A program made the translations under genes and the position numbers. From an uncultured Oscillospiraceae bacterium (lineage in GTDB: Bacteria > Bacillota > Clostridia > Oscillospirales > Oscillospiraceae), in assembly GCA_910584285.1 (NCBI GenBank), contig CAJTYK010000002.1:2261-66260 (forward strand): DNA of 64,000 bases, written 5' to 3'. The notes under the pieces are model-generated. The model did no database searches. It was not told the origin of the DNA and saw only the letters and a list, made by a program, of their open reading frames with translations. Shown here one piece after another: positions 6,976-59,849 of this stretch. Position 1 is the first letter of the stretch. Each line of letters opens with the position of its first letter.

Positions 6976-6981
6976 CAACCC

Positions 6982-26886: not shown

Positions 26887-26887
26887 G

Positions 26888-27814
26888 ATGGATAAGAACA
26901 TGGTCGTCTCCGTCAACCCCCATATCTACGCATCCCAAACCACCCAGACAATCATGCGGGACGTGCTCATCGCCCTGTTCCCCGCCGTCATCGCGTCTAT
27001 CGTGTTCTTCGGGATCCAGGCGCTGCTGGTGGAAGTGGTGTGCGTGGCGGTGGCCGTGCTGTGCGAGTGGGCCTTTGAGAAGATCACCCACCGGCCCGTC
27101 ACCATCACCGACCTGTCCGCAGCCGTCACCGGCCTGCTGCTGGCCCTGAACCTGCCGGTGGATATCCCCCTGTGGCAGGCGGTGTTCGGTGCCTTCGTGG
27201 CCATCGTGGTGGTGAAGCAGTTCTTCGGCGGCATCGGCCAGAACTTCGCCAACCCCGCCATCACCGCCCGCGTCATCATGCTGGTGGCCTTTTCCGGCAC
27301 CATGACCGCCTGGGCTATCCCCGCCTTTACCGATGTCACCTCCTCCGCCACCCCCCTGGCCGTCCTGAGCGGGGCGGAGGGCCAGCTGCCCACCCTGGGC
27401 CAGATGTTCCTGGGCGCCCGGGGCGGCTCCATGGGTGAGACCTCCTGCCTGGCCCTGCTCCTCGGTGGCATTTACCTGGTCTACCGCAAGGTCATCACCT
27501 GGCATACCCCCGTGGCCTTCATCGGCACCGTGCTGGTGTGCACCGCCCTGCTGGGGCAGGAGCCGCTGTACCAGGTGATGGCAGGCGGCCTGTTCATCGG
27601 CGCCATCTTCATGGCCACCGACTACACCACCTCCCCCCCCACCCCCGCCGGAAAGCTGATCTTCGGCCTGGGCTGCGGCCTCATCACCGTGCTCATCCGC
27701 GTGTGGGGCAACTACCCGGAGGGCGTGTCCTTCTCCATCCTGCTGATGAACATTTTGAACCCCTACATCTGTGAGTGGACGAAAACCAAGCCGTTTGGAG
27801 GTGTTCAGGCATGA
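26888..27814 (+). CDS. rnfD: Rnf complex subunit D
   Basis: 308-aa polytopic protein with an NqrB/RnfD-like sequence (ATPLA, FMATDYTTSP). Confidence 0.93.
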   Translation: MDKNMVVSVNPHIYASQTTQTIMRDVLIALFPAVIASIVFFGIQALLVEVVCVAVAVLCEWAFEKITHRPVTITDLSAAVTGLLLALNLPVDIPLWQAVFGAFVAIVVVKQFFGGIGQNFANPAITARVIMLVAFSGTMTAWAIPAFTDVTSSATPLAVLSGAEGQLPTLGQMFLGARGGSMGETSCLALLLGGIYLVYRKVITWHTPVAFIGTVLVCTALLGQEPLYQVMAGGLFIGAIFMATDYTTSPPTPAGKLIFGLGCGLITVLIRVWGNYPEGVSFSILLMNILNPYICEWTKTKPFGGVQA

Positions 27815-28371
27815 CAAAAGCGAAATCCAATGTGGTCAGCGACTTTGTGGCCCCCATCGCCGTGCTGGTGATCATCTGCGTGGTGATGAGCTGCCTGCTG
27901 GCCCTCACCAACAACGCCACCGCCCCCATCATTGAGGAGGCAGAGCGCAAGGCCAAGGAGGAGGCCCGGCTGGAGGTGCTCCCCGGCGCCGACAGCTTCG
28001 AGCAGCTGAACGTGGACGGCCTGCCCGACGCGGTCACCGAGGTCTACAAGGCTGCCAACGGCGCGGGCTACACCTTCTCCCTCAAGGCCCAGGGCTACGG
28101 CGGCAAGGGCACGCTGAACCTGACCGTGGGCATCGACATGGACGGCAAGATCACCGGCACCAAGGTGCTCAGTCACAGCGAGACGGTGGGCCTGGGTTCC
28201 AAGATCACCAACGACGAGTTCAAAAACCAGTTCCCCGGCAAGGACGCCTCCTACGTGTCCGATATCAAGAACATCGACACCATCAGCGGCGCCACCCGTT
28301 CCTCCAACTTCTACCGCCTGGCATTGACCTATGCCTTTGAAGCCTTCGACATGGTAAAGGAGGCCGCCTGA
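27811..28371 (+). CDS. rnfG: Rnf complex subunit G (FMN-binding)
   Basis: ATG 27811 overlaps the rnfD stop (ATGA). FMN-binding SGATRSS motif. The ORF-track start is 27775. Confidence 0.9.
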   Translation: MTKAKSNVVSDFVAPIAVLVIICVVMSCLLALTNNATAPIIEEAERKAKEEARLEVLPGADSFEQLNVDGLPDAVTEVYKAANGAGYTFSLKAQGYGGKGTLNLTVGIDMDGKITGTKVLSHSETVGLGSKITNDEFKNQFPGKDASYVSDIKNIDTISGATRSSNFYRLALTYAFEAFDMVKEAA

Positions 28372-28372
28372 T

Positions 28373-29068
28373 ATGAATAACAACAAGCTGAAAATCCTCA
28401 CCAACGGCATCATCAAGGAGAACCCCATCCTGGTGCTCATCCTGGGCACCTGCCCCTTCCTGGCGGTCACCACCCAGGCCTCCAACGCCATCGGCATGGG
28501 CGCGGCGGTCACCTTCGTGCTGCTGTGCTCCAACATCATGATCTCCCTGCTGCGCAAGGTGATCTCCGACAAGGTGCGTATCCCCTGTTACATCGTGGTC
28601 ATCGCCTCCTTCGTCACCCTGGTGCAGATGATCGTCAAGGCCTACCTGCCCGACCTGGACAAGGCCCTGGGCCTGTACCTGCCCCTCATCGTGGTGAACT
28701 GCATCATCCTGGGCCGGGCGGAGATGTTCGCCAACAAGAACACCCCCCTGGACTCCGCCCTGGACGCCATCGGCATGGGCGTGGGCTACACGCTGGCCAT
28801 GCTGGCGATGGCGAGTATCCGCGAGATCTTCGGCGCAGGCACCTGGTTCGGCATCCCCGTCCCCGTGCTGGCGGACAACAACATCTCCATCATGACCATG
28901 GCCCCCGGCGGCTTCGCCATCTTCGGCATTTTGATCGCCATCATCAACAAGGCCAGCAACGGCAAGGCCATCAAGAAGAAGGACTTCAGCTGCGAGGGCT
29001 GCCCCAGCGCCGCCGCGTGCAACGGGCAGAACTGCGCTGAGAAGAAGAAGGAGGCTGCCGCGAAATGA
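28373..29068 (+). CDS. rnfE: Rnf complex subunit E
   Basis: 231-aa NqrD/RnfE-like membrane protein. Confidence 0.92.
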   Translation: MNNNKLKILTNGIIKENPILVLILGTCPFLAVTTQASNAIGMGAAVTFVLLCSNIMISLLRKVISDKVRIPCYIVVIASFVTLVQMIVKAYLPDLDKALGLYLPLIVVNCIILGRAEMFANKNTPLDSALDAIGMGVGYTLAMLAMASIREIFGAGTWFGIPVPVLADNNISIMTMAPGGFAIFGILIAIINKASNGKAIKKKDFSCEGCPSAAACNGQNCAEKKKEAAAK

Positions 29069-29676
29069 AAGAGTTATTAGCCATCGTCATGGCGGCCGTT
29101 CTGGTAAACAACTACGTGCTGGCCCAGTTCCTGGGCATCTGCCCCTTCCTGGGCGTGTCCAAGAAGCTGGATCAGGCCGCCGGCATGAGCGTGGCCGTCA
29201 TCTTCGTCATGGTGCTGGCCACCGCCGTCACCTACCCCATCCAGCACTTCATCCTGGACAAGAACAACCTGGGCTACCTCCAGACCATCGTGTTTATCCT
29301 GGTGATCGCCGCCCTGGTGCAGCTGGTGGAGATCATCCTGAAGAAGTACATCCCCGCGCTGCACGCCTCCCTGGGCGTGTACCTGCCCCTGATCACCACC
29401 AACTGCGCGGTGCTGGGCGTGTGCATCAGCAACGTGGACAACTACATGGGCGTCACCGCCTTCGGCGGCTCCTTCGTCCAGGCGCTGTTCAACGCCCTGG
29501 GCTCCGGCCTGGGCTTCCTGCTGGCCATGGTGCTGTTCTCCGGCGTGCGCAGCCGGGTGGACAAGTGCAAGTGCCCCGAGTGCTTCAAGGGGATGCCCAT
29601 CACCCTGATCTCCGCGGCCATCGTGTCCGTGTCCTTCATGGGCTTCGCCGGCCTCGTGGAAAACCTGCTGGGTTAA
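29065..29676 (+). CDS. rnfA: Rnf complex subunit A
   Basis: 203-aa NqrE/RnfA-like membrane protein. Overlaps rnfE by 4 nt. Confidence 0.92.
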   Translation: MKELLAIVMAAVLVNNYVLAQFLGICPFLGVSKKLDQAAGMSVAVIFVMVLATAVTYPIQHFILDKNNLGYLQTIVFILVIAALVQLVEIILKKYIPALHASLGVYLPLITTNCAVLGVCISNVDNYMGVTAFGGSFVQALFNALGSGLGFLLAMVLFSGVRSRVDKCKCPECFKGMPITLISAAIVSVSFMGFAGLVENLLG

Positions 29677-29689
29677 GGAGGGGAAGCGT

Positions 29690-30511
29690 ATGAATCCGAT
29701 TGTTATTGCGATTTTGGTGGTGGGTATCATCGGCCTGCTGTGTGCCGTGATGCTGACCATCGCCTCCAAGTTCATGGCAGTGGAGGTGGACGAGCGCATC
29801 CCCCAGGTGCGGGAATGCCTGCCCGGCGCCAACTGCGGCGCCTGCGGCTTCGCCGGGTGCGACGGATATGCCGCCGCCCTGGTGGAGGATCCGGATCTGT
29901 CCGTCAGCCTGTGCGTCCCCGGCGGGGCCACCGCCGCCGCCAGCATCGGCAAGGTGCTGGGCCGGGAGGCCGGCGACGTGGCCAAGCAGGTGGCTGAGGT
30001 GCGCTGCTCCGGCACCTGTGAGGCCACCTCCGTGAAGATGGACTACAAGGGCCTGGAGAGCTGCGCCGCCGCCAAGCTGCTGTTCGGCGGCACAGGCAAG
30101 TGCGTCTACGGCTGCATCGGCCTGGGTGACTGCGCCCAGGTGTGCCCTGTGTCCGCCATCCACATCAACGGCGGGCTGGCCCGAGTGGACGCCAGCGTGT
30201 GCATCGGCTGCGGCCTGTGCGCCAAGACCTGCCCCAACGGCGTCATCGCCATCCGTCCCGCCGACGCCCACATGGTGGTGGACTGCAACAGCCACCAGAA
30301 GGGCGCGGGCACCCGCAAGAGCTGCTCCGCGGGCTGCATCGGCTGCCAGCTGTGCGAGAAGAACTGCCACACCGGGGCCATCACCGTCACCGACAACCTG
30401 GCGAGCATTGACTACGCCAAGTGCGACGGCTGCGGGAAGTGCATCGAGGTGTGTAAGGCCGGCTGCCTGGTGGCGTTGAACATCACCAAGGCCGAGGTCG
30501 TCAACGGCTGA
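29690..30511 (+). CDS. rnfB: Rnf complex subunit B (polyferredoxin)
   Basis: 273 aa with an N-terminal anchor and multiple 4Fe-4S Cys motifs. Confidence 0.92.
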   Translation: MNPIVIAILVVGIIGLLCAVMLTIASKFMAVEVDERIPQVRECLPGANCGACGFAGCDGYAAALVEDPDLSVSLCVPGGATAAASIGKVLGREAGDVAKQVAEVRCSGTCEATSVKMDYKGLESCAAAKLLFGGTGKCVYGCIGLGDCAQVCPVSAIHINGGLARVDASVCIGCGLCAKTCPNGVIAIRPADAHMVVDCNSHQKGAGTRKSCSAGCIGCQLCEKNCHTGAITVTDNLASIDYAKCDGCGKCIEVCKAGCLVALNITKAEVVNG

Positions 30512-32721: not shown

Positions 32722-34092
32722 ATGGGCAAATATTTTGGCACCGACGGCTTCCGGGGCAAGGCCAACGTGGAGCTCACCGCCCACCACGCCTATGAGGTGG
32801 GCCGCTTCCTGGGCTGGTACTACGGCCGGGGCGGGGAGCGGGCCCGCATCGTGGTGGGCAAGGACACCCGCCGCTCCAGCTATATGCTGGAGTACGCCAT
32901 CAGCGCGGGCATGGCCGCCTCCGGGGCGGATGTGTATCTGCTCCACGTCACCACCACCCCCTCCGTGTCCTACGTCACCCGGACGGACGGCTTCGACTGC
33001 GGCGTGATGATCTCCGCCTCCCACAACCCCTACTACGACAACGGCATCAAGCTGATGAACCGGGAGGGGGAGAAGATGGACGAGGGCACCATCCGGCTGG
33101 TGGAGGACTACCTGGACGGCAATCTGTCCGTGGACGGGCAGGCCCTGCCCAAGCTGCCCTTCGCCACCGGCGAGGGGATCGGCAGCATCGTGGATCACAC
33201 CGCGGGCCGCAACCGGTACATGGGCTACCTGATCTCGCTGGCGGTGTACTCCTTCCGGGGAAAGCGGATCGCCCTGGACTGCGCCAACGGCTCCGCCTGG
33301 AGCATCGCTCCCAACGTGTTTCGCTCTTTAGGCGCGGACGTGCACGTCATTAACGACCGCCCGGACGGGCTGAACATCAACCTGGACGCGGGCTCCACCC
33401 ACATCGACGGGCTGAAGCAGTACGTGAAGGATCACGGCTGCGACGCAGGCTTCGCCTTTGACGGGGACGCGGATCGCTGCCTGGCCGTGGACGAAAACGG
33501 CAACCTGGTGGACGGCGACCAGATCATGTACCTGTACGGCCTGTATATGAAGGAGCGGGGCAAGCTGCTCACCAACACGGTGGTGACCACCGTCATGTCC
33601 AACTTTGGGCTGTACAAGGCGCTGGACGCGGCGGGGATCGATTACGTCAAGACCGCCGTGGGGGATAAGTACGTCTACGAGGACATGGTGAAGAACGGCC
33701 GCCGCCTGGGCGGCGAGCAGTCGGGGCACATCATCTTCTCCAAGTATGCCCGGACGGGGGACGGCATCCTCACCGCCCTGAAGGTGATGGAGGTGATGAT
33801 GGCCAAGAAGGAGACGCTGAGCCGCCTGGCGGAGCCGGTAACCATCTACCCGCAGGTGTTGATCAACGTGCGGGTGAAGGACAAAAAAACCGCCCAGGAC
33901 GACCCGGCTGTCCAGGCGGCGGTGCAGGCCGTGGCGGACGAGCTGGGGGACACGGGCCGGATCCTGGTGCGGGAGTCCGGCACCGAGCCGCTGGTGCGGG
34001 TGATGGTGGAGGCGCCGGAGAAGGGCCTGTGCCAGGCCCTGGCCCAGGGGGTGGTGGATGTGATCCTTGCCCAGGGGCACGGGGCGGAATAA
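32722..34092 (+). CDS. glmM: phosphoglucosamine mutase
   Basis: 456 aa. Active-site block GVMISASHNP and GEQSGH. Confidence 0.95.
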   Translation: MGKYFGTDGFRGKANVELTAHHAYEVGRFLGWYYGRGGERARIVVGKDTRRSSYMLEYAISAGMAASGADVYLLHVTTTPSVSYVTRTDGFDCGVMISASHNPYYDNGIKLMNREGEKMDEGTIRLVEDYLDGNLSVDGQALPKLPFATGEGIGSIVDHTAGRNRYMGYLISLAVYSFRGKRIALDCANGSAWSIAPNVFRSLGADVHVINDRPDGLNINLDAGSTHIDGLKQYVKDHGCDAGFAFDGDADRCLAVDENGNLVDGDQIMYLYGLYMKERGKLLTNTVVTTVMSNFGLYKALDAAGIDYVKTAVGDKYVYEDMVKNGRRLGGEQSGHIIFSKYARTGDGILTALKVMEVMMAKKETLSRLAEPVTIYPQVLINVRVKDKKTAQDDPAVQAAVQAVADELGDTGRILVRESGTEPLVRVMVEAPEKGLCQALAQGVVDVILAQGHGAE

Positions 34093-34687: not shown

Positions 34688-36283
34688 CTACCTGTCCCAC
34701 TTGGCAATAAGCGCCCGGATCTGATCCTCGAACTTGCCCAGATCCTTGTTGGAGCCGCCCCGGTTGTGGGCGATGACCTCCAACAGCTTCTGGCCCATAT
34801 CCTCCAGCCGGCGGTAGGCCGGGGAGCCCATGGGGGCCGCCGGGACCTTGGGCTCCAGCACGATGCCCGGGGCGATCAGGCGGTTATCCAGCAGGTCGTA
34901 GACCTCCTCATAATCAGGGGCGTGGACGGCAAAGCCCAGCTCCTTCAGGGTCTGGGTGTAGTTCTCCGCGGCCCGGGCCTCGCCGTGTACCACGAACACC
35001 TGCTTGGGCTTGGGGCTGAAGGCGCTGATCCAGCGCACCAGTCCGTCCCGGTCTGCGTGGGAGCTCAGGCCGTGGAAGCGGACGATCCGCGCCCGGACCG
35101 CCACCTCCTCCCCGAACAGACGCACCCGCTGGGCGCCGTCCAGAATCCGGCGGCCCAAGGAGCCGTCCGCCTGGTAGCCCACAAAGAGGATGGTGCACTC
35201 CGGTCGCCACAGATTGTGCTTCAGGTGGTGCCGGATGCGGCCCGCGTCGCACATGCCGGAGGCGGAGATGATCACCTTGGGGGTGGGGTCGGCGTTCAGC
35301 CCCCGGGATTCCTCGGTGCCCTCGGTGATGTTCAGCCCCGGGAAGCGGAACAGCGCCCCGCCCCGCAGGTGCTCAATGGCGTCCTCGTCCAAGTAGCCGG
35401 TGAGATCGCCGGAAAAGATCTCGGTGGCCGCCCCGGCCAGGGGGGAGTCCACGTACACCTGGAAGTCGGGGTTGTGGCGCACCAGCCCCTGCTCCTTGAT
35501 CTGGCGGATAAAGTACAGCAGCTCCTGGGTGCGGCCCACGGCGAAGGAGGGGATGATCAGGTTGCCCCCCTCAGCCATAGTCTCGTCAATGACCCGGGCC
35601 AGATCGTCGGCGTAGTTGGGCTTTTCCTTCACGTTGTGGAGCCGGTCGCCGTAGGTGCTCTCCGTCACCACATAGTCGGCGTCCGTGATGTACTGGGGAG
35701 CGCGGATGATGGGGGTTTTCCGGTTGCCGATGTCGCCGGAGAACACGATCTTCCGGGTCTCCTCCCCCTCGGTGAGCCAAAGCTCCGCGCAGGCGGAGCC
35801 CAGCAGGTGGCCCGCGTCGATAAACCGGGCCCGGATGCCGTCGGAGATCTGGAACTCCTGGCCGTACTCCATGGTGACCACGTGCCGCAGGGCCCGCTCC
35901 ACGTCCACGATGGTATACAGCGGCTCCACCGGGGGCTTGCCCGCCCGCTGGCCCTTCTGGTTCTCCCAGGCGGCGTCGCTCTCCTGGATGTGGGCGGAGT
36001 CCCGGAGCATGATGTCCAGCAGCTGGGCCGTCAGCCGGGTGCAGTAGATATTGCCCCGGAAGCCCTGCTTCACCAGCAGGGGGATACGCCCTGAGTGATC
36101 GATGTGGGCGTGTGTGACCACCATGTCGTCGATGAGGGAGGGGGCGAAATCCAGCTCGGCGTTGTCCCGCTCGTCCCGGCCCTGCTGCAGGCCGCAGTCC
36201 ACCAGCACCTTGTGGCCGTTGGCCTCCACACAGTGGCAGCTGCCGGTGACCGCCTTGGCCGCGCCGAAAAAGGTCAATTTCAT
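34688..36283 (-). CDS. MBL-fold metallo-hydrolase with beta-CASP/RNA-specificity domain
   Basis: ATG 36283 follows GAGGTG. HAHIDHSG motif and beta-CASP-type blocks. The ORF-track start is 36376. Confidence 0.8.
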   Translation of the reverse strand: MKLTFFGAAKAVTGSCHCVEANGHKVLVDCGLQQGRDERDNAELDFAPSLIDDMVVTHAHIDHSGRIPLLVKQGFRGNIYCTRLTAQLLDIMLRDSAHIQESDAAWENQKGQRAGKPPVEPLYTIVDVERALRHVVTMEYGQEFQISDGIRARFIDAGHLLGSACAELWLTEGEETRKIVFSGDIGNRKTPIIRAPQYITDADYVVTESTYGDRLHNVKEKPNYADDLARVIDETMAEGGNLIIPSFAVGRTQELLYFIRQIKEQGLVRHNPDFQVYVDSPLAGAATEIFSGDLTGYLDEDAIEHLRGGALFRFPGLNITEGTEESRGLNADPTPKVIISASGMCDAGRIRHHLKHNLWRPECTILFVGYQADGSLGRRILDGAQRVRLFGEEVAVRARIVRFHGLSSHADRDGLVRWISAFSPKPKQVFVVHGEARAAENYTQTLKELGFAVHAPDYEEVYDLLDNRLIAPGIVLEPKVPAAPMGSPAYRRLEDMGQKLLEVIAHNRGGSNKDLGKFEDQIRALIAKWDR

Positions 36284-36333
36284 CAAAAGGCACCTCGATT
36301 CTCTTTCCTGTCTTGTGCAGGTTCTATAATGGC

Positions 36334-36362
36334 ATTGTATAACAGGACGGGGGAAAAGTAAA
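36334..36362 (-). promoter_or_regulatory. candidate promoter of the beta-CASP gene
   Basis: Minus strand: TTTACT (36362-36357), 17 nt, TACAAT (36339-36334). Confidence 0.4.
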
Positions 36363-36384
36363 GGGCTTCCCGACAACTTTCGGG

Positions 36385-36431
36385 AAAAATAGAGGAAGGC
36401 CGGGCTGCCCCCCGACCTTCCTCTATTTTTT
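36385..36431 (-). terminator. intrinsic terminator closing the B12-uptake operon (bidirectional shape)
   Basis: Minus strand: AAAAAATAGAGGAAGG ... CCTTCCTCTATTTTT, an 11-bp outer stem with a GC-rich inner stem. Confidence 0.8.
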
Positions 36432-36455: not shown

Positions 36456-37562
36456 TCAGAAGCCGGACTCGTCCAGCTTCCCTTGGCTCCGGGCCAGCTC
36501 CCGCAGCCGCCGGTTGCCCTCGTTCATCTCCCCGAAGTCCTCCACTGGGCAGAGCACCCGGGTGCACCCCTCCATCAGGGCAGCGGCCCGCCGGAGCGCC
36601 TCCTCCCCGATGGGGCGGAAAGGCTTCTCCGAGACGGTCTCCACCGCCAGTGCCCGGGCCACGGGGTAGTCCAGGTCGTTCTCCCCCAGCACCCCGGCGG
36701 CAAAGGGCGTCCCCTGCCGCTGGAGCCGGCGATAGACCGGGATGCCCGCCCCGCCGCCGCCGATGACAAACACCTCCGGGGCCCCGGAGGCCGCCTCCAG
36801 CTCCAGCGAGCCGTACAGGGCGTTGTAGCTGCCCCGGGCCGCGCCGTACAGATCCGTGATATACTCCGCAGTGAAGATGTCCTCCGGCGGGCCCTGCCGA
36901 GCGATGGTATCCCCCGAGACGCACACCACCCAGTCGCTGATCTTCTGGGCCAGATCCAGCTCGTGGAGGGACATCACCACCGCCAGGTTCCGGGAGCGCA
37001 CCATGTCCTTCAAGATGGCCAGCAGCTCCAGCTTGTGGCGGATGTCCAGGAAGGAGGTGGGCTCGTCCAGCACCAGCACCTCCGGCTCCTGGTTCAGCGC
37101 CCGGGCCAGCAGCACCCGCTGGCGCTGCCCGTCGCTGATCCGGGAGAAGTCCCGATCCGCCAGGTCGGCGGCGTGCACCAGCTCCAGGCTCTTGGCTGTC
37201 TTGTCCCGATCCTCCTGGGTCAGGATCCCCAGCCGCCCGGTGTAGGGATACCGCCCGGTGGCCGCCACGTCGAAGCAGGTCATCAGCTCCGGGCGGACGT
37301 GGGCGGTCATGAGCACGCTGAGCTTCCGGGCCACGTCCCGCTCGCTGAGGGCCGCCATGTCCTCCCCACCCAGGTACACCGCCCCCCCGATGAGGGGGAG
37401 CTGCCGGATGAGGCTTTTCAGGATGGTGGATTTGCCCGCCCCGTTGGGGCCGATAAGGGTCATGATCCGCCCCCGGCGCAGCTCCAGCTCAATGCCGCTG
37501 ATGAGGGCCCTTTTGTGGTAGCCCACGCTGAGGTGTTCCGTGCGCAGACGCGGTTCGCTCAT
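36456..37562 (-). CDS. ABC transporter ATP-binding protein (FepC/BtuD class) with a roughly 110-aa C-terminal extension
   Basis: ATG 37562 overlaps the permease stop (ATGA). Walker A (GPNGAGKST), signature (ISDGQRQR) and Walker B (VLVLDEP) are present. The extra C-terminal domain starts around EVFVIGGGGAGIP. The ORF-track start at 38123 is an artefact. Confidence 0.85.
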   Translation of the reverse strand: MSEPRLRTEHLSVGYHKRALISGIELELRRGRIMTLIGPNGAGKSTILKSLIRQLPLIGGAVYLGGEDMAALSERDVARKLSVLMTAHVRPELMTCFDVAATGRYPYTGRLGILTQEDRDKTAKSLELVHAADLADRDFSRISDGQRQRVLLARALNQEPEVLVLDEPTSFLDIRHKLELLAILKDMVRSRNLAVVMSLHELDLAQKISDWVVCVSGDTIARQGPPEDIFTAEYITDLYGAARGSYNALYGSLELEAASGAPEVFVIGGGGAGIPVYRRLQRQGTPFAAGVLGENDLDYPVARALAVETVSEKPFRPIGEEALRRAAALMEGCTRVLCPVEDFGEMNEGNRRLRELARSQGKLDESGF

Positions 37563-38572
37563 GCCCGGGCCCCCTTCCCGCCCCGCCGGGAGGCCATGAG
37601 GTAGAGCACCACCGGCGCGCCGAACACGGCGGTGACGGAGCTGATGGACATATCCCGGGGGGCGAAGGCGGTGCGGGCGATGAGGTCGCAGAACAGGCAG
37701 AAGGCTGCGCCCCCCAAAAAACAGCCCGGTATGATCACGATGGGCTTTGCGGTGCGGAACAGGCCCTTCACCAGATGGGGCACAGCGATGCCCACGAAGG
37801 AGATGGGCCCGGCAAAGGCGGTGACGCAGGCGGACAGCAGGCTGGACAGCAGGATCAGCTCTGCCCGGAACCGCTTGATGTTCACCCCCATGCTCTGGGC
37901 GTACACCTCCCCCATCTGGTAGGCCCCAATGGGCTTGGACAGCAGGAAGGTGAGCACCAGGGCCACGCCCACCACCCAGGCCATGAGCCGCACGTTTTCC
38001 CAGGAGGTGCCGGAGAAGCTGCCCAGCGACCAGTTGTGGAGGTTGACGATGTTGGAGTCGTCGCTGAAGGTGATCACAAAGTCGGTGATGGCGGAGCAGA
38101 TGTTGCCGATCATGATGCCGCACACCACCAGCATGGACATATTCCGCACCCGCCGGGACATGAGCAGCACAAAGCCCATGGAGATCATGGATCCGGCGAA
38201 GGCCCCCGCCACCATGGCCATGGAGCTGATGACGATGCCCCGGCTGAGGAAGGTCACCATCACCAGGGCCACCGTCAGCTTGGCCCCGGAGGAGATGCCC
38301 AGCACAAAGGGCCCGGCGATGGGGTTAGCGAAAAAGGTCTGGAGCAGGAAGCCGGACACCGACAGCGCCCCGCCCAGGATGGCGGCGGCCAGCAGCCGGG
38401 GCAGGCGCATCCCCCAGATAATGCCGCTCTCCGACGGCTTTAGTAGGGCGGAAAATACCTCCTCCAGCGGTATGCTCACGCTGCCGGCGCTGATATTCCA
38501 CACCAGCAGCGCCAGCACCAGTGCCGTCAGCAGCGCCAGCCCTGCGGCGCAGCGCGGCCGGTTGTCTTTCAT
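37559..38572 (-). CDS. FecCD/BtuC-family ABC permease
   Basis: Polytopic FecCD-like sequence. ATG 38572 lies 6 nt after GGAGGGG. The ORF track starts at GTG 38590. Confidence 0.9.
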   Translation of the reverse strand: MKDNRPRCAAGLALLTALVLALLVWNISAGSVSIPLEEVFSALLKPSESGIIWGMRLPRLLAAAILGGALSVSGFLLQTFFANPIAGPFVLGISSGAKLTVALVMVTFLSRGIVISSMAMVAGAFAGSMISMGFVLLMSRRVRNMSMLVVCGIMIGNICSAITDFVITFSDDSNIVNLHNWSLGSFSGTSWENVRLMAWVVGVALVLTFLLSKPIGAYQMGEVYAQSMGVNIKRFRAELILLSSLLSACVTAFAGPISFVGIAVPHLVKGLFRTAKPIVIIPGCFLGGAAFCLFCDLIARTAFAPRDMSISSVTAVFGAPVVLYLMASRRGGKGARA

Positions 38573-38586
38573 CGTCATCCCCTCCG

Positions 38587-39777
38587 TCACGTCAGCCGGT
38601 AGAGATAGGTCAGCGACCCATCCGCCCCATGGCCTTGCGTCAGAATGTTATGGATGTCCAGCATCATCTCGCCCACGGACTGGGATTCCTGGAACATACT
38701 TTTTCCGGTGCACCACACATTTCCCTCCCGCACCGCCTTGAAGTCGGCCAGGGGGGCGCTTTTGGCAATGAGCTGCTCCAGCGTCTCCAACGTGCCCTCG
38801 ATGGTGCTGTTGTAGATGAGCACATCTGCGTCCTTTGCCTCGTGGTAGAAGCTCTCCATCTGGATGTTCATGGTGGACAGGGCGTTGTCCCCCTCCCCCA
38901 GGCCCTCGGGCAGATAGACCCCGCCCGCCAGGTCGATGGCCTTGGCGATGTAGTCCCCCGACTTGCGCACCGTCACCATGCCGTTGGCGGTGACGGCGAA
39001 GAAGGCCACCGTCTTTCCGGTGCTCTCCTGCTCCAGCACGGGCTCCAGCCTGGCCAGCTGCTCAGCGTAGTAGGCGTCGGCCTCCTTCTCCCGGCCCAGC
39101 AGGGCGCCGTACAGCTTCACCCACTCCATCCGGCCCAGGGGGTGGCTCTCATAGCTGGAGCGCTCCACCAGCACCGGGATGCCCAGCCGCTCCAGCTGCT
39201 CCTTCACCTCGGGGTTGTGGTAGATCATGGTGGACTCCAGGGCCATGCCACAGCCCTTGGACTGGAGCAGCTCGTAGTCCGGAGCGGAGTATTTCCCGGC
39301 GTACACCATCCGGCCCGCCTCCATGGCCTCCTTCACCTCGGGGAGATACCAGCCCGCCGCGTCGGTGCCCACCAGGGTGACGGCGTCCATGGCGTCCAGC
39401 TTCCGGAAGCAGTCCATGGCGGCGGTGGCCTGTAGGTAAATATTCTGGATGGGCTGGCGCAGAACGGTGACGTCCTCCGGCGTGCCCTCCGGGATGGGAT
39501 CCAGCTCGGGCACCACCAGATAGGTTTCCGTATCAATGGCGATCCGCTGATAGCCCTCCGGGGAATAATCCACGGAAAACATCTGGGCATAGTCCAGCTC
39601 CAGGTGTCGGCTCCAGTCCATCTCGCCCCAGGCCGGCACGACCCGCTCTGTGTTGGCGGGCTCCGACCCCTGGGAGGGCTCCTGGGCGGGCGGCGCGGAG
39701 GTCTCCCCAGCAGGGGCGCAGGCACACAGGGCCGCCGTCAGCGCCAGCAGGGGCACAACAATTTTCCACAATTTCAT
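38587..39777 (-). CDS. ABC substrate-binding lipoprotein (BtuF/FhuD class, Peripla_BP_2-like)
   Basis: Signal peptide with a lipobox (LTAALCAC). A cluster-A type binding-protein sequence next to the FecCD permease. Confidence 0.8.
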   Translation of the reverse strand: MKLWKIVVPLLALTAALCACAPAGETSAPPAQEPSQGSEPANTERVVPAWGEMDWSRHLELDYAQMFSVDYSPEGYQRIAIDTETYLVVPELDPIPEGTPEDVTVLRQPIQNIYLQATAAMDCFRKLDAMDAVTLVGTDAAGWYLPEVKEAMEAGRMVYAGKYSAPDYELLQSKGCGMALESTMIYHNPEVKEQLERLGIPVLVERSSYESHPLGRMEWVKLYGALLGREKEADAYYAEQLARLEPVLEQESTGKTVAFFAVTANGMVTVRKSGDYIAKAIDLAGGVYLPEGLGEGDNALSTMNIQMESFYHEAKDADVLIYNSTIEGTLETLEQLIAKSAPLADFKAVREGNVWCTGKSMFQESQSVGEMMLDIHNILTQGHGADGSLTYLYRLT

Positions 39778-39787
39778 AGGCGTCCCC

Positions 39788-40423
39788 TTACTGCTTCGTC
39801 AGGCTGGCGGAATCAAAGGTTACGGTGTACTCCACCTCATGGGGCTCGCTCATAGCCACCGTGTCGGCGATGACGGTCAGCGGCGCGTCAAAGGCGGTCA
39901 CTGGGATCTCAAAGACGGAGTTGCTGCCCGGGGCGCTGATCAGGTCGTAGCGCACGCCGTTCACCTTCATGTAGTCAAAGTTGGGACTGCTCCACACAAT
40001 GGTGGCGTAAAACTTTCCGCCCGAGCACCGCAGCGCCGCAGGAGACTGGATGGTGGCCCGTCCGGTGCCCCCTGACAAGGTGACCTTGGCGGTGTAGCTG
40101 CCGTCCTCCGGGCCGGAGGGGGTGGGCTCCGGGGTGGGGGCCGTTGTGGGCTCCGGAGTGGGCTTGGCAGTGGGCTTTGCCGTGGGCTCCGGGGTGGCCG
40201 TGGGCTCCGGGGTGGGAGCTGTTGTGGGCTCGGTCGTGGCGGTGGCCTCCGGGGCGGGGGTGGCCGTGGGCTCGGTTGTGGCGGCAGGCTGGGACTGCTC
40301 CGGAGCGGGGCTGGGGGTCTGGGTGGGCTCCGGCGGCTGCTGCGGCTGCTGCGCGGCACAGCCGGCCAGCACCGTCAGGGTCAGCGCCAGCGCCGCCAGA
40401 CGGGCCATCGTGTTCTGTTTCAT
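39788..40423 (-). CDS. lipoprotein: Pro/Thr-rich linker plus a roughly 105-aa uncharacterised beta-rich (NEAT-like) C-terminal domain
   Basis: ATG 40423 follows GAGGAGGA. Lipobox LAGC. About 80 aa of EPT/TPA repeats. The C-terminal domain is shared with the C-terminus of the upstream SLH-CbiK protein. Confidence 0.7.
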   Translation of the reverse strand: MKQNTMARLAALALTLTVLAGCAAQQPQQPPEPTQTPSPAPEQSQPAATTEPTATPAPEATATTEPTTAPTPEPTATPEPTAKPTAKPTPEPTTAPTPEPTPSGPEDGSYTAKVTLSGGTGRATIQSPAALRCSGGKFYATIVWSSPNFDYMKVNGVRYDLISAPGSNSVFEIPVTAFDAPLTVIADTVAMSEPHEVEYTVTFDSASLTKQ

Positions 40424-40441
40424 CTAATTCTCCTCCTCGTC

Positions 40442-40478
40442 AAAAGAAGCGCCGCAGAGCGCTTGGCTCCGCGGCGCT
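40442..40478 (-). terminator. intra-operon hairpin plus U-tract between the first two genes
   Basis: Minus strand: AGCGCCGC (40478-40471) pairs with GCGGCGCT (40455-40448) and is followed by TCTTTTG. Confidence 0.5.
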
Positions 40479-40487
40479 CAGAGAACG

Positions 40488-42353
40488 TTATTTCGCCTTG
40501 GCGGTGTCTGCCTGGAAGGTCAGGGTGCGGTCGTACCAGGTGTCCTTCTTTGCGCTGTGGGCGGCATAGTCCAGAGGCTTGTCCAGCTCGGCCACGGCCA
40601 GGGTGAAGGTGGTCTTGCCGTCGGCCTTCACACCGTCCACCACGCCCTCCTGGGCCAGGCCGGCGGCGGAGGCGGTGCCCACAAACATCTTGTCGAAGCT
40701 CTCGCTGCCCAGCACCAGCTGGGCGGTCATCTTGCCGTCCTTCACGGTGAGGGTGCAGCTGTCGATCTTGAACATGGACTGCTCGCACTCCACCTCGATG
40801 GCGTACACGCCGTCGGCCAGTCTCTCCTTGCCGTCGGGGTTCTCGGGGTTGGGCTCCACGTCCACGCCGGTGTCGCCCAGGGGCTTGGCGGCCTTGGCAT
40901 GGGCGGCCAGCAGATCCCGGATGGCCTGGAGCTCGCCCAGGCCCTTCACCTCACACTGGACCTCCAGTCCGGCGGCGGAGAACACAGAGTACCAGGACTG
41001 GGGGTCGTTCTCATCGGCCATGTCGTTGTTGGCGTGATCCCCCGCCACGATCATCATGGGGCGCAGCACCACCTTGGTGTATCCGGCCGCCTTCACCAGC
41101 TCCACCAGCTCCTGGGCGGTAGGGGAGGCCTCCACGGTGCCAATAAAGTAGTTCTTGTGGCCCTTGTCGGTGAGCACCTGCTGCATCTTGGCGTAAATGC
41201 TGTTGGAGGCGGCCTCGGTGCCGTGGCCCATGTAGCACACGGCGGTCTTGCCGTCCTTGGCCAGGTCCTGGGTGGCGGCCACCATGGCGTCGGCCACCTG
41301 GTCGAAGTCGTCGTCGGTGGTGAGCAGGGGGGCGCCGATCTTGATGGACTGGAAGTTGCCCTCATATTTCTCCAGGGCCTTCACCAGATCGCCGTACTCC
41401 CAGCCGTTCATCAGGTGGGTGGGCTGCACCAGCAGCTCCTCCACGCCGTTCTTCTTGGCCCGCTCCAGGGCCTCCTTCACGTTGTCGATGAGCTCGCCGT
41501 CCCGGCGGTATACATGCTCGATGATGATGTCGGCGGTAAAGCCACGGCGGACATCATAGTCCGGGAACGCTTTGTCCAGGTCGTCCTCGATGGCCTTGAT
41601 GGTCAGCACCCGGTTGTCGTTGAAGCTGGTGCCAAAGCTCACCACCAGCAGCTCCTTCTTGCCGATGCTGTCCTGGTTGCGGGGGTTATCCTTGGAGGCG
41701 TCGCCGGTGGCGGCGTCAGCCATGTAGCGGCACAGGATGGCGGACACCTCCGCCCGGGTGGCGGTGCCGTTGGGGTTGAGCTTCCGGTTCTGATCCCCGG
41801 TGATGAACTCGCTGGCCACGGCCCAGTTCATGTAGCCCTTGGCCCAATCGCTCACCTCGGCGGCGTCGGGATAGGCGGACGTCTCGTCCTTGCGGCTTTT
41901 CAGGGCGTCCTTGCCCACCTGGCGGGCGGCAAACTCGCAGATGATCTTGGCGATCTCCTGCCGCTTGACGGTGCCATTGGGGTCAAAGGTGTCGTTGTTG
42001 GCGGTCTTGCCGTTGACGATCTTCTGGGAGAAGGCCCAGACCACCGCGTCCCGGTAAGCATCCCCCTCCTTCACATCCTGGAAGGGATTGTCCACGCCCT
42101 TCACATCGGGGGAGTTGGCCAGACGGTACAGCGCCGTCACCAGCTCCGCCCGGGTCATGGGCTCGTTGGAGCCAAAGGTGGTGTCGGTTCTGCCGTCCAC
42201 CAGGCCCTTCTCCGTCACCTCGGCCACATACTCCTTGGCCCAGTCGGGCACGTCGGTGTACTTGGCTGCGTCGGCGGCGAAGGCGGAGCCGGTCAATCCC
42301 GCCGCCAGCACCAGGGCCAGCAGCAGCGCGGTGAGCTTGTTCCGTTTTCTCAT
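40488..42353 (-). CDS. secreted S-layer-homology (3x SLH) protein fused to a CbiK-type chelatase domain and a C-terminal NEAT-like domain
   Basis: Signal peptide (..GSAFA/AD). Three SLH repeats (aa 30-215). CbiK-like core (aa 232-487) with both conserved His blocks (LVQPTHLMNGWEY, CYMGHGTE). C-terminal domain aa 512-621. AAGGAGG lies upstream. Confidence 0.8.
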   Translation of the reverse strand: MRKRNKLTALLLALVLAAGLTGSAFAADAAKYTDVPDWAKEYVAEVTEKGLVDGRTDTTFGSNEPMTRAELVTALYRLANSPDVKGVDNPFQDVKEGDAYRDAVVWAFSQKIVNGKTANNDTFDPNGTVKRQEIAKIICEFAARQVGKDALKSRKDETSAYPDAAEVSDWAKGYMNWAVASEFITGDQNRKLNPNGTATRAEVSAILCRYMADAATGDASKDNPRNQDSIGKKELLVVSFGTSFNDNRVLTIKAIEDDLDKAFPDYDVRRGFTADIIIEHVYRRDGELIDNVKEALERAKKNGVEELLVQPTHLMNGWEYGDLVKALEKYEGNFQSIKIGAPLLTTDDDFDQVADAMVAATQDLAKDGKTAVCYMGHGTEAASNSIYAKMQQVLTDKGHKNYFIGTVEASPTAQELVELVKAAGYTKVVLRPMMIVAGDHANNDMADENDPQSWYSVFSAAGLEVQCEVKGLGELQAIRDLLAAHAKAAKPLGDTGVDVEPNPENPDGKERLADGVYAIEVECEQSMFKIDSCTLTVKDGKMTAQLVLGSESFDKMFVGTASAAGLAQEGVVDGVKADGKTTFTLAVAELDKPLDYAAHSAKKDTWYDRTLTFQADTAKAK

Positions 42354-42388
42354 GTCTCGTTTTCCTCCTTACGGTCTCATTTGTTCTA

Positions 42389-42551
42389 AGAACCTGTATT
42401 CACAGCCGAAGATGCCGGCTGGGCGAGGGATTTTTTCGCCAGACAAGGCGCATTTTCGCAGGAATACTTTGTGTATTTCAAGAAAATGCAACGCAGTATG
42501 GCGGAAAAAGACCCGTCCAGACGGCGTTTGAGGTTGTGAATACAGGTTCTA
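42389..42551. mobile_element. 163-bp element bounded by perfect 16-bp inverted repeats (MITE-like) in the operon leader
   Basis: AGAACCTGTATTCACA (42389-42404) pairs with TGTGAATACAGGTTCT (42536-42551). The interior is 47-50% G+C by hand count of two 60-nt lines, lower than the flanks. Confidence 0.6.
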
Positions 42552-42605
42552 AATTTCCCGACGGGCTGAGCCCGCCGTGGGAAACCGGATCGGGCGGGGC
42601 GCCGT

Positions 42606-42850
42606 AAAAAGGAAACGCCCCGGGCCGAAGGCCTCGGGGCGCGACAATGCCTCACGCGCGGAACACCGCCGTGAGGCCGAATCAAAAGCGCACTCTTGGT
42701 TTCGGCAGAATGCAGCCAGCCGCCACATATCTGACTTATCCCCTCAACGGGGGCATCACAGTGACCGACTCGCAGGGACTCTCACCCTATTCTGTGCGCC
42801 GCCACAGGCGGCCGCGGTTGGCTTCCAGCTATTCAGTTGAACTGACAAAT
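42606..42850 (-). promoter_or_regulatory. cobalamin riboswitch 1 (aptamer about 42690-42850, terminator 42606-42642)
   Basis: Minus strand reads GGTGAGAGTCCCTGCGAGTCGGTCACTGTGATGCC...GGGGATAAGTCAGATATGTGGCGG (core plus B12-box-like block). The terminator CGCCCCGAGGCC TTCG GCCCGGGGCG plus TTTCCTTTTT follows. Confidence 0.85.
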
Positions 42851-42852
42851 AC

Positions 42853-42881
42853 AGGCTAACACGGCGGAACGGATTTGTCAA
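42853..42881 (-). promoter_or_regulatory. candidate promoter of riboswitch 1
   Basis: Minus strand: TTGACA (42881-42876), 17 nt, TAGCCT (42858-42853). Confidence 0.45.
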
Positions 42882-42891
42882 GCATTTCCTT

Positions 42892-42917
42892 GCCCGTGTT
42901 GGCCCGTGTTGGCCCGG
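42892..42917. repeat. tandem 10-mer (2.6 copies)
   Basis: GCCCGTGTTG GCCCGTGTTG GCCCGG, between the cbiG stop and the -35 of the riboswitch promoter. Confidence 0.6.
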
Positions 42918-42918
42918 G

Positions 42919-43950
42919 CTATCCGGGGAACCGGGCAGCCCAGTCCTCCTCCGCCACCGCCACGGTGACGCCGTTCCGGATGGTTTTGCCCACCACCAGT
43001 CGCCGGGCGCCCATTCTGGCGGCCCGTTCGCACACGTTATCCACCCCCGTGAAGCGCAGCACCCGCTCAGAATGGGCAAAGTCCCCCGCCAGCGCCGCCA
43101 GCTCCCGGGCGCTGTAAAAGGCCGCCGGCCAGCCCTGGGCGGCGCAGTAGTCCAGCAGGCCCTCCTCATCCCGCTTCAGATCGATGGAGGCCACGCAGCT
43201 CACCGCCCTGGGGTGGATGTCATGCTCCTCCAGCACCTGCTTCACCGCCGCCCGGATGGCCGCCTCGCTTGTCCCCCGCCGGCAGCCCAGGCCCAGGTGG
43301 AGCACCGGGGGAACCAGCAGCAGCGTCTCCCGGAAGGGGGCCTTTTTCCGCCAGGAGATGCAGATGCCCACCGCTCCGCTGTCTCCCCGCTCCGTGCCGG
43401 GGGGCAGTTCCCCCTCCACGGGAAAGTCACAGCACAGGGGCACCGGGCCCTCCAAAATGGCAGCGGATACCGCCTTGGCCGCCTTCATGTCGTCGAGGAA
43501 CAGCCCCTGCCGGGCGGCCCAGGCGTCCACAGAGAATTTCCCGTTGACGTCGGTGGCGGTGGTAACCACCGGCTCCGCCTCCAGCCCCCGGGCCAGCCGC
43601 AGGGCCAGGGCGTTGGCCCCGCCGATATGGCCGGACAGCAGGGGGATGACAAACTGCCCCAGCTCGTCCACGCACAGCACCGCCGGATCGGTGCGCTTGT
43701 CCCGCACCCAGGGGGCGATGGAGCGCACAGCGATGCCCGCCGCCCCTACAAATATCAGGGCGTCCCCCCAGGCAAACAGCGGGCCGGTGGCCTGGGCGCA
43801 GGGGGAGCCCAGCACCTCAAACGTCCCGTCCGCGTACCGCTCCGGGGCCAGGCACCGGCACTCGTCCCCCGGGCCCCGCAGGCAGTCCCGGATCCGCAGG
43901 GCCGTCTCCCGCCCCCGGCGGCTGTAGGCAAATATGGCCAGCTTCATCAC
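42919..43950 (-). CDS. cbiG: cobalt-precorrin-5A hydrolase
   Basis: 343 aa. CbiG N- and C-terminal domains (VGAAGIAVRSIAP, LGLGCRRG). Confidence 0.85.
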   Translation of the reverse strand: MMKLAIFAYSRRGRETALRIRDCLRGPGDECRCLAPERYADGTFEVLGSPCAQATGPLFAWGDALIFVGAAGIAVRSIAPWVRDKRTDPAVLCVDELGQFVIPLLSGHIGGANALALRLARGLEAEPVVTTATDVNGKFSVDAWAARQGLFLDDMKAAKAVSAAILEGPVPLCCDFPVEGELPPGTERGDSGAVGICISWRKKAPFRETLLLVPPVLHLGLGCRRGTSEAAIRAAVKQVLEEHDIHPRAVSCVASIDLKRDEEGLLDYCAAQGWPAAFYSARELAALAGDFAHSERVLRFTGVDNVCERAARMGARRLVVGKTIRNGVTVAVAEEDWAARFPG

Positions 43951-44129: not shown

Positions 44130-44738
44130 TTGGACGACACCAAAACAAGGATCCTCTCCGCGGCGATGAAGGCCGTCCGGCAGTATGGGCTGGAAGGCGT
44201 CCGGGTACAGAACATCAGCGAGCTGGCCGGCATCTCCCCCGGGGCCATGTACCGCTACTTCAAAAGCAAGGACGAGCTGATGGTGGCCTGCTTTGCCAGC
44301 GTGGATCAGCAGGCAGCCGCCATCTTTGATCATCTCAAGTTCAACCCCCTGATCATGTTCACCGACCCCATGAAGGCGGTCAGGAGCCTGTGGGTGCCCT
44401 ACTTCCGTTTCTGGGTGGCCCATCCGGACGAGACGGTGTTCTACCACCGCTTCCGGGACAGCGCCGCCTTCCCCGAATTTTACAAGCACTACGACGGAAG
44501 CCATTTCAACACCTTCGGCGGCATGGTGCGGGCCTTTATGAACACCTTCCCCAGCCTGCGCAGGATCAACCAGGATCTACTGTGGCTCCACGTGCTCACC
44601 TCCACCGTGATGTATGCCAAATACGTGGTGGAGGGCACGCTGCCCAACACCCAGGAGACGGAGGACACGGTGTTCCAGTTTATCAGCGTGGGCCTGAGCG
44701 GTTACCTGCGGCCCGAGAACGCAACCCCTAATTCTTAG
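44130..44738 (+). CDS. TetR/AcrR-family transcriptional regulator
   Basis: 202 aa. N-terminal HTH (TRILSAAMKAVRQYGLEGVRVQNISELAGISPGAMYRYFKSKDEL). TTG start follows GAGAGGAGGGG. Confidence 0.85.
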   Translation: MDDTKTRILSAAMKAVRQYGLEGVRVQNISELAGISPGAMYRYFKSKDELMVACFASVDQQAAAIFDHLKFNPLIMFTDPMKAVRSLWVPYFRFWVAHPDETVFYHRFRDSAAFPEFYKHYDGSHFNTFGGMVRAFMNTFPSLRRINQDLLWLHVLTSTVMYAKYVVEGTLPNTQETEDTVFQFISVGLSGYLRPENATPNS

Positions 44739-59627: not shown

Positions 59628-59845
59628 AAAAAAGCGCCCCTGCTTCACCAGGGGCGCGTACTAACCCCGCCCAGGAGGGCGGGACGAACCGCTTGCTGTG
59701 CTTCCGGTTTCGGCAGAAAAGCTCCAGACCGCCATGTATCTGACTTATCCCTTCAGGGAGGGCATCACAGTGACCGACTCGCGGGGACTCTCACCCCATT
59801 CCATGCGCCGCCGACGCGGCCGCGGCTGGTATCCTATTGAGTTGG
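59628..59845 (-). promoter_or_regulatory. cobalamin riboswitch 2 (aptamer about 59700-59845, terminator 59628-59657)
   Basis: Minus strand reads GGTGAGAGTCCCCGCGAGTCGGTCACTGTGATGCC...GGGATAAGTCAGATACATGGCGG. The terminator GCGCCCCTG GTGAAG CAGGGGCGC plus TTTTTT sits directly before the cbiD SD. Confidence 0.85.
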
Positions 59846-59849
59846 CCAT

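Follow-up and report, generated by a model that had tools for sequence, protein, structure and literature searches.

A candidate Gram-positive surface capture system for B12-like cofactors behind an unannotated cobalamin-riboswitch variant in an uncultured Oscillospiraceae bacterium

What is captured at the cell surface by an operon which places two exported proteins in front of a BtuFCD-type importer and all five genes behind a leader RNA of the cobalamin riboswitch lineage? The question is raised by a 64,000-nucleotide (nt) stretch of contig CAJTYK010000002.1 from an uncultured Oscillospiraceae bacterium, hereafter the window, in which the operon runs on the minus strand as one compact unit from 42881 down to 36385. 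It encodes, in this order, a surface protein with S-layer homology (SLH), CbiK and NEAT-fold parts (P1), a NEAT-fold lipoprotein (P2), a BtuF-like lipoprotein (P3), a permease (P4) and an ATPase (P5). All the features which a preliminary description had listed for this unit were found at their places. Here we consider it probable that the operon encodes a B12-repressed, Isd-like surface relay which captures a cobalt tetrapyrrole, most probably a corrinoid, at the Gram-positive cell surface, and the interpretation is supported at the level reachable by comparative genomics. The leader is, in addition, a member of a cobalamin-riboswitch subclass which is unannotated.

Surface proteins P1 and P2

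P1 (621 amino acids (aa), 40488-42353, minus strand) was characterized by Pfam, by PDB sequence matches and by a structure model. It has a Sec signal peptide, with cleavage between AFA and AD, three SLH cell-wall anchor repeats (Pfam, 2e-25), a CbiK domain at aa 229-492 and a C-terminal domain at aa ~510-621. The CbiK domain matches PF06180 at 1e-74 (251.5 bits against a cutoff of 26.2 bits, profile positions 1-260 of 262) and the SLH-CbiK protein of the preliminary description is thereby confirmed; the NCBIfam equivalog cutoff for CbiK is not reached (219 bits vs 400). The matches among PDB sequences are S. enterica CbiK (1qgo, 2.7e-43), P. gingivalis FetB (9b86, 1e-39) and the periplasmic CbiK of D. 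vulgaris (2xvx, 4.8e-29). The catalytic and metal-binding residues of CbiK are His145, Glu175 and His207 in the S. enterica numbering, and H377, E408 and H440 of P1 align with the MGHG, VE and GDHA motifs of 1qgo. Unlike the standard class II cobaltochelatase CbiK, P1 is not cytoplasmic, given its signal peptide and SLH repeats.

The C-terminal domain of P1, in which YAAHxxK..WYDRTLTF is conserved, has a NEAT fold in its model (predicted local distance difference test, pLDDT, 84.5), and all of its top Foldseek matches are NEAT domains (Hbp2-N2 2.7e-5, IsdX1 3e-5). P2 (211 aa, 39788-40423, minus strand) carries the lipobox LAGC and a Pro/Thr-rich linker of ~80 aa, as had been described for it, and then a NEAT-fold domain at aa 100-211. 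This domain was modelled by AlphaFold2 (AF2) at pLDDT 90.2, and the best Foldseek match of the model is IsdX1 (3sik, E 2.8e-6, TM 0.78), followed by Hbp2-N2 and IsdC. Against PF05031 the P1 C-terminus scores 17.3 bits and P2 17.5 bits, both under the gathering cutoff of 32.8 bits, many homologues carry a precomputed PF05031 assignment, and PDB sequences searched with a profile of the P2 family give only marginal IsdX1 matches (E 0.2). The assignment of the NEAT fold, an eight-stranded immunoglobulin-like beta sandwich, therefore rests on structure comparison, because sequence alone does not establish it. The two domains are related to each other over 103 columns (HHalign probability 98.9%, E 2.5e-17), which together with the two NEAT-fold models rules out a chance likeness, although BLASTP had given only E 5e-4. 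The earlier claim of a shared NEAT-like beta domain of ~105 aa holds for homology and for modelled fold, and it is qualified by the Pfam NEAT cutoff which both copies miss.

Importer proteins P3, P4 and P5

The three genes downstream of P2 were identified by Pfam, in agreement with the BtuF-like lipoprotein, FecCD permease and ATPase of the preliminary description. P3 (396 aa, 38587-39777, minus strand) is a BtuF-like cluster-A substrate-binding lipoprotein of the Peripla_BP_2 family (4.6e-25), P4 (37559-38590, minus strand) is a FecCD/BtuC-type permease (FecCD, 3e-76) and P5 (368 aa, 36456-37562, minus strand) is an ATP-binding cassette (ABC) ATPase (ABC_tran) whose ATG start at 37562 overlaps the permease stop (ATGA). 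The best NCBIfam name of P4 is BtuC, at 210 bits under an equivalog cutoff of 334 bits, and that of P5 is 'corrinoid ABC transporter ATPase' (PRK09536), at 207 bits against a cutoff of 537; P5 also matches the NCBIfam haem ATPase at 177 bits.

The importer resembles the E. coli-type BtuFCD in having Peripla_BP_2, FecCD and ABC ATPase proteins under B12 riboswitch control. It differs from it by the equivalog cutoffs which are not reached, by P3, for which no solved homologue was detected among PDB sequences, and by a C-terminal extension of P5 (~120 aa, residues ~250-368), which in orthologues carries PF27219 (MJ0874) and is like that of the archaeal-type PRK09536 model. The PDB sequence searches of P3 and P5 did not separate corrinoid from haem, because P3 found no match and P5 generic ATPase matches. 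It is riboswitch control which suggests that P3-P5 transport cobalamin or other corrinoids.

Leader RNA

The aptamer of the leader (42704-42841, minus strand) scores 115 bits with R1, a covariance model built from the variant elements. Its parts are, in order, helix P1, the P2 hairpin, P3 (RNA helices, numbered apart from the proteins), GAAU, the GGGUGAGAGUCCC hairpin, an invariant GCGAGUCGGUCACUGUGA, the P5/6 hairpin and AAGUCAGAUA. Behind it lies the expression platform (42606-42703, minus strand), where the segment CUGCCGAAACC...UUCGGCCUC is conserved and is accompanied by an intrinsic terminator with a GC-rich stem (42645-42616) and a U-run (42615-42606). The free energy (dG) of the terminator is -25.1, with z -2.65, and the terminator is kept in the alignment of orthologous leaders.

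Rfam 15, with the RF00174 gathering score of 31.5 bits, gave no match to RF00174 anywhere in the window at that score, and neither RF00174 nor RF01482 nor RF01689 was found on 42300-43000 even at E<=10. A positive control, the btuB leader of E. coli, scores 87 bits, which rules out a faulty Rfam library as the cause, and five standard elements score 40-91 bits. The other Rfam matches of the leader (v-snoRNA-1, ncS037, Chlorobi-1, GlsR5 and mir-277) were rejected as chance matches. None of 14 variant elements, in 13 variant loci scanned, was detected by RF00174.

In the leaders of orthologous operons, which were fetched via P1 homologues, the alignment shows a nearly invariant element of ~135 nt. 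Compensatory changes occur in 9 of 16 predicted pairs, the paired cells reach 99.1% vs 82.5% in shuffles, and the covariation score is 0.478 vs 0.144 in shuffles, a value reached by 0 of 500 shuffles, with slid controls at 0.089 or lower. On the window R1 finds exactly two sites, at 119 and 115 bits.

The canonical RF00174 consensus, for which the five standard elements were also used, has a GCCACUG core and the B12 box AGYCMGGAGACCKGCC. Across 88 variants GUCACUGUGA and AGUCAGAUAC are invariant, strings which are related to the canonical core and box but altered. The variant shares with RF00174 (clan CL00101, with RF01482 and RF01689) the helix order, the GGUGAnAnnCC loop, the ...CACUGUGA core, the AGYCAG box, the terminator-type expression platform at the end and the regulon (cbi/cob, btuFCD-type importers and metE). 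It is unlike RF00174 in its core (GAGUCGGUCACUG vs GGGCCCGCCACUG), in its box (AGUCAGAUAC vs AGCCAGGAGACCUGCC) and in having no P6 extension. The variant is placed in the cobalamin riboswitch lineage because R1 cross-detects short canonical RF00174 elements at 14.5-36 bits; the RF00174-positive elements so found are L128 (36 bits, E 2e-9), L037, L115, L031 and L009. Within that lineage the leader is therefore a class-II-like member which has diverged and is missed by current Rfam models. A riboswitch for something other than B12 was rejected, given this cross-detection and the regulon of cbi/cob, importer and metE genes. The riboswitch with terminator of the preliminary description is thus upheld in its terminator, its lineage and its regulon, and is corrected from a standard RF00174 member to an unannotated variant.

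A metagenome-assembled genome (MAG) of Spirochaetales has at L071 2607-2738 (+) an intermediate form, GCGAGCCCGUCACUGUAA ... AAGCCAGAUUACC, which scores 51 bits with R1 and may bridge the canonical and variant classes.

Regulon of the variant in the window and in Clostridia

The 18-nt core GCGAGTCGGTCACTGTGA of the leader recurs in the window at 59765-59782, within a second copy of the variant (59712-59846, minus strand, 119 bits with R1). This copy lies directly upstream of cbiD (58462-59607), the head of a ~15-kb cobalamin biosynthesis operon running from 59607 down to 44940 in the order cbiD-cbiL-cbiF-cbiH-cbiJ-cbiET-cbiA-cobT-cobU-cobS-...-cbiP-cbiC-cobO; the genes between cobT and cobO are named here after Pfam assignments on the identical locus L002.

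The distribution of the variant was surveyed motif-first, by a loose pattern scan with one genome per species, which gave at least 120 stretches (in the range L010-L128). The variant makes up ~112 of them and ordinary riboswitches five, all of the latter RF00174 at 40-91 bits. As a lower bound the variant is present in more than 100 species-level Clostridia genomes, and among the matches listed its hosts are mostly Oscillospiraceae, Ruminococcaceae, Lachnospiraceae and Butyricicoccus. Variously arranged cbi/cob operons follow the variant, as do the SLH-CbiK operon, further importers of the Peripla_BP_2/FecCD/ABC type, metE and genes for large surface proteins which are secreted.

Both classes occur together in one MAG (L024), in which the variant (6929-7066, minus strand) upstream of cbiD stands back to back with a canonical RF00174 element (7232-7459, plus strand, 64 bits) upstream of cbiG; coexisting variant and canonical classes might differ in ligand selectivity. 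In the window cbiG stands alone, with the transporter operon on one side and the main cbi operon on the other, beside a divergent TetR-family regulator (42919-43950 (-), 44130-44738 (+)), and no riboswitch was detectable at it, unlike its orthologue in L024 with a canonical RF00174 of its own.

Other first genes under the variant encode SLH-anchored surface proteins with DUF4430 and a prenyltransferase-like alpha/alpha toroid (L016 4611-6467, L012 1737-3329, L103 1387-4368, L017 1325-5704 and L048 2269-6807). DUF4430 is the C-terminal domain of transcobalamin-type binders (PMC4350170). Their domains make these proteins candidates for a second class of Gram-positive wall-anchored B12 binders, and since the transcobalamin-like pair of DUF4430 and toroid lies under the variant, the same regulatory niche is held elsewhere by recognisable B12-binder domains. 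Genes with no obvious B12 link were also seen behind the variant, namely an [FeFe]-hydrogenase-like gene (L015 73-1614 and L021) and a pyridine-nucleotide disulphide oxidoreductase (L086 6163-7494) behind an atypical copy of 63.7 bits with a different 5' half.

Orthologous loci and shuffling of the modules

The homologues of P1 number in the thousands, and the order of all five genes is preserved in four chromosomal settings which differ from one another, in two of them beside cbi genes or fused with them. As the motif-first scan is biased towards riboswitch-linked loci, the sampling was repeated protein-first with the P2 family in metagenomes, which gave at least 600 matches, many from the human gut. 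In 19 of 20 protein-first loci with full upstream flank, a canonical RF00174 element of 76-111 bits lies on the same strand, and the importer gene order is kept in ~80 loci. Control by B12 riboswitches is therefore of two kinds across genomes, and the orthologues are linked to such riboswitches and to transporters elsewhere, a linkage on which the preliminary description had made its reading depend. Most often the riboswitch is followed by an exported CbiK which lacks SLH, then by the two-NEAT protein, the BtuF-like protein, the FecCD permease and the ATPase.

The modules are distributed differently among the proteins of different genomes. CbiK and two NEAT domains form a single lipoprotein in L042, a CbiK protein is accompanied by a separate two-NEAT lipoprotein in L088, and in the window SLH-CbiK-NEAT is paired with a NEAT lipoprotein; these fusions and fissions are Rosetta-stone evidence that the modules act together. 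The exported members which were inspected have Sec or lipoprotein signals. Records named Enterocloster bolteae and E. clostridioformis contain the two-NEAT protein under the annotation 'hypothetical protein', and in a metagenome locus which encodes the exact E. bolteae-named protein, RF00174 scores 106 bits and CbiK is a lipoprotein. An SLH-CbiK homologue of 65% identity stands alone in L007 (10001-11854), with no transporter genes beside it and no riboswitch element in its leader, so not every member of the family belongs to such an operon.

Proposed mechanism and alternative explanations

In the mechanism which we favour, a high intracellular level of cobamide would lead to its binding by the leader aptamer, the terminator at 42645-42606 would form and transcription would stop, and at low cobamide transcription would read through. 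P1 would be exported by the Sec pathway and held on cell-wall polysaccharide by its three SLH repeats, so that the CbiK-fold and NEAT-fold domains would be displayed outside the wall. P2 would be tethered to the membrane, and its linker of ~80 residues would let the NEAT-fold domain reach into the wall. The ligand would then be handed from P1 to P2 and from P2 to the BtuF-like lipoprotein, and would be imported by the permease and ATPase, which are of BtuCD type. We thus propose, by analogy, that a corrinoid is relayed in the way in which the Isd system relays haem. The cargo is most probably a corrinoid on the comparative evidence, which could be a cobamide in complete form or an incomplete one, for example cobinamide or cobyric acid; we infer it, together with the direction of hand-over and the polarity of the off-switch, from comparison, whereas the domain composition, export signals, gene order, folds, conserved and shuffled modules and B12-riboswitch control are shown. 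A corrinoid is read here because the same element heads the cbi/cob operon of the window, because in some genomes cbi genes lie next to the operon or are fused to it, and because the best NCBIfam names of P4 and P5 are BtuC and corrinoid ATPase.

Several results weigh against this reading. The preliminary description had named a leader which does not score as RF00174 as an outcome that would speak against it, and formally this is what was found, even at E<=10; as the leader has no RF00174 match, its ligand is read from the regulon only. P4 and P5 fail the NCBIfam cutoffs, and P3 has no solved relative. To our knowledge every characterised NEAT domain binds haem, and binding of a corrinoid, as opposed to haem or a precursor, is what we suppose for the surface proteins. 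The extracytoplasmic CbiK homologues FetB of P. gingivalis and CbiK-P of D. vulgaris bind haem or porphyrins (PMC13065792). All 60 distinct CbiK domains of the collected loci, 59 of them exported, keep the H/E/H triad without change down to 42% identity, and such strict invariance suggests catalysis beyond mere binding. A weak promoter-like site, TTGAAA-18-GAAAAT with TG at 42481-42452, lies downstream of the riboswitch inside the spacer before P1, and could give B12-independent expression which bypasses the riboswitch.

The invariant triad speaks for the alternative of extracellular chelation or precursor salvage, which we hold to be unlikely. Here a catalytically active surface CbiK would bind or metalate an early or metal-free tetrapyrrole outside the cell, such as sirohydrochlorin, cobalt-sirohydrochlorin or a metal-free corrinoid, and the NEAT domains and importer would feed the cobalt tetrapyrrole to the cytoplasmic cbi pathway. 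In P. gingivalis, the surface protein FetB acts as a chelatase for Co and Mn (PMC13065792). The window cbi operon encodes the pathway from cobalt-precorrin-2 on, the 64 kb hold no cytoplasmic cbiK/cbiX and no hemA-D/cobA, the exported CbiK-family domain being the sole one, and the operon is fused to cbiD... in several genomes. The early genes, however, commonly lie elsewhere in a genome, so that a 64-kb window cannot show their absence, and free sirohydrochlorin is no known environmental nutrient. In addition, another genome has a signal-less CbiK inside its cbi operon (L057), and the E. bolteae-type locus does not adjoin cbi genes. Unlikelier still is a proposal in which the surface CbiK would be an active extracellular chelatase with NEAT carriers of corrinoid or cobalt tetrapyrrole, inserting or exchanging metal in scavenged metal-free or wrongly metalated tetrapyrroles outside the Gram-positive cell before Isd-like import, and in which the variant riboswitch would sense another corrinoid form than the canonical class.

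Uptake of haem or porphyrin, in which the NEAT domains and a CbiK-fold protein of an Isd-like or FetB-like system would capture haem for a haem ABC importer, is very improbable. Both NEAT-like domains have their best structural matches among NEAT domains which bind haem, FetB and the D. vulgaris CbiK-P are haem-binding, and cluster-A importers also carry haem, as the haem ATPase match of P5 recalls. Against this, B12 riboswitches control nearly every locus (the variant in the window, RF00174 in 19 of 20 protein-first loci), the regulon is common with cbi/cob and metE, the operon is linked to cbi genes and it has no haem oxygenase gene. Both NEAT-like domains remain at 17 bits vs the 32.8 bits of the Pfam cutoff. 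The haem-iron ligand motif of NEAT domains is YxxxY on the last strand, with an SxxxxY lip; YxxxY is evident neither in the sequence of the P2 family, which conserves SGGxGRA and AMSxPHExxY instead, nor in the P1 C-terminus.

Least probable is acquisition of cobalt, with Co(II), free or as a small chelate, captured by the surface CbiK for import: CbiK does bind Co(II) at its conserved His/Glu/His site by established enzymology, B12 riboswitches often control cobalt uptake and cobalt import is under B12 feedback regulation (PMC7689651), but Peripla_BP_2/FecCD systems carry organic chelates and not free ions in the established cluster-A-II classification, the two conserved NEAT-fold domains are of a kind which binds tetrapyrroles in all known cases, and the best family names of permease and ATPase are BtuC and corrinoid ATPase.

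Comparison with known systems

By mechanism, the relay proposed here for a corrinoid is closest to the Isd system of S. aureus and B. anthracis (IsdB/H/A/C > IsdE > IsdF). In both, the genes for wall-anchored and membrane-tethered NEAT-fold domains (by Foldseek for the operon) stand together with those for a Peripla_BP_2 lipoprotein and a FecCD permease, an architecture which fits hand-over of a tetrapyrrole across the thick Gram-positive wall. The operon is under a B12 riboswitch, whereas Isd is under iron/Fur, and its anchors are SLH repeats and lipid, whereas those of Isd are sortase-linked (LPXTG). The operon also differs from Isd in its added CbiK-fold domain, in having no IsdG-type haem oxygenase gene, in its NEAT domains under the Pfam cutoff and without evident YxxxY, and in its presumed ligand, a corrinoid. 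An SLH-anchored NEAT protein is known in BslK of B. anthracis.

By function, BtuG, BtuH, BtuJ and BtuK of Bacteroides thetaiotaomicron (PMC13616437, PMC8941943) are the closest. Like P1 and P2, they are accessory surface proteins in B12 transport loci controlled by cobalamin riboswitches, with presumed capture and relay to the transporter. Their folds are unrelated to the CbiK and NEAT building blocks of the operon, and the Pfam scans of P1 and P2 gave only SLH, CbiK/CbiX and weak NEAT, with no BtuG beta-propeller, BtuH domain or BtuJ DUF4465. The envelope of the host is Gram-positive, with no TonB-dependent BtuB in the operon.

By protein family, the extracytoplasmic CbiK homologues FetB/IhtB of P. 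gingivalis (9b86) and CbiK of D. vulgaris (2xvx) are closest, sharing with P1 an exported CbiK fold with the catalytic residues kept, and FetB matches it in sequence at 1e-39. IhtB is encoded with a binding protein, a permease and an ATPase. Unlike P1, these homologues have no B12-riboswitch control, no SLH repeats and no NEAT partners, their hosts are Gram-negative, and they are tied to haem, iron or porphyrin (Mn-PPIX, manganese protoporphyrin IX) biology (PMC13065792).

Significance

According to a September 2026 review, extracellular capture of cobamides in Gram-positive bacteria "remains entirely uncharacterized" (PMC13616437), which agrees with the preliminary description, where no characterised Firmicute equivalent was known. 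The known surface capture proteins (BtuG, BtuH, BtuJ and BtuK) are all from Bacteroidota. In the literature, no description was found of CbiK with S-layer homology, of NEAT with cobalamin or of CbiK with BtuF and a riboswitch, and papers on cobalamin riboswitch variants in Clostridia gave no description of the system. The operon is the best current candidate for surface capture of B12-like cofactors by Gram-positive gut bacteria, and a very widespread one, with thousands of homologues, many from human gut metagenomes. As the two-NEAT protein is carried by cultured E. bolteae and E. clostridioformis, the question of capture is directly testable. Should binding of a corrinoid be confirmed, this would be the first tetrapyrrole other than haem known as a ligand of the NEAT fold, and the CbiK fold would acquire a receptor role.

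The variant is invisible to Rfam 15, and the B12 regulons of Oscillospiraceae and related Clostridia are therefore under-annotated, which affects metabolic reconstructions of the gut microbiome.

Further features of the operon and its surroundings

The promoter (42853-42881, minus strand), which had already been noted, was read from the sequence as TTGACA-17-TAGCCT with an upstream TG, of the extended -10 type. It scores under the threshold of a generic promoter scan, its -10 hexamer being too weak, and TTGACA and TGnTAnnnT are kept in the orthologous leaders (alignment A1). Between the leader terminator and the start codon of P1 is a long spacer (42354-42605, minus strand, ~250 nt) with a GGAGG ribosome-binding site, and ~170 nt of it are missing from the aligned orthologous leaders.

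The gene junctions had been described as tight. This holds downstream of P2, where a 10-nt gap, a GTGA overlap and an ATGA overlap follow one another, and does not hold between P1 and P2, which are separated by 64 nt (40424-40487, minus strand) with a strong 14-base-pair (bp) GC-rich hairpin (dG -34.1, z -4.16) and then a U-run, UCUUUUGA. This hairpin may be an internal attenuator or partial terminator by which P1 is made in excess over the downstream products. The operon ends, as had been reported, in a strong terminator (36385-36431, minus strand), a perfect 20-bp hairpin between an A-run and a T-run (dG -37.6, z -6.09).

The neighbouring genes are ordinary, namely the Rnf complex (rnfC, rnfD, ..., rnfB) at 25534-30511 (+), the phosphoglucosamine mutase GlmM at 32722-34092 (+) and an RNase J-like beta-CASP nuclease at 34688-36376 (-).

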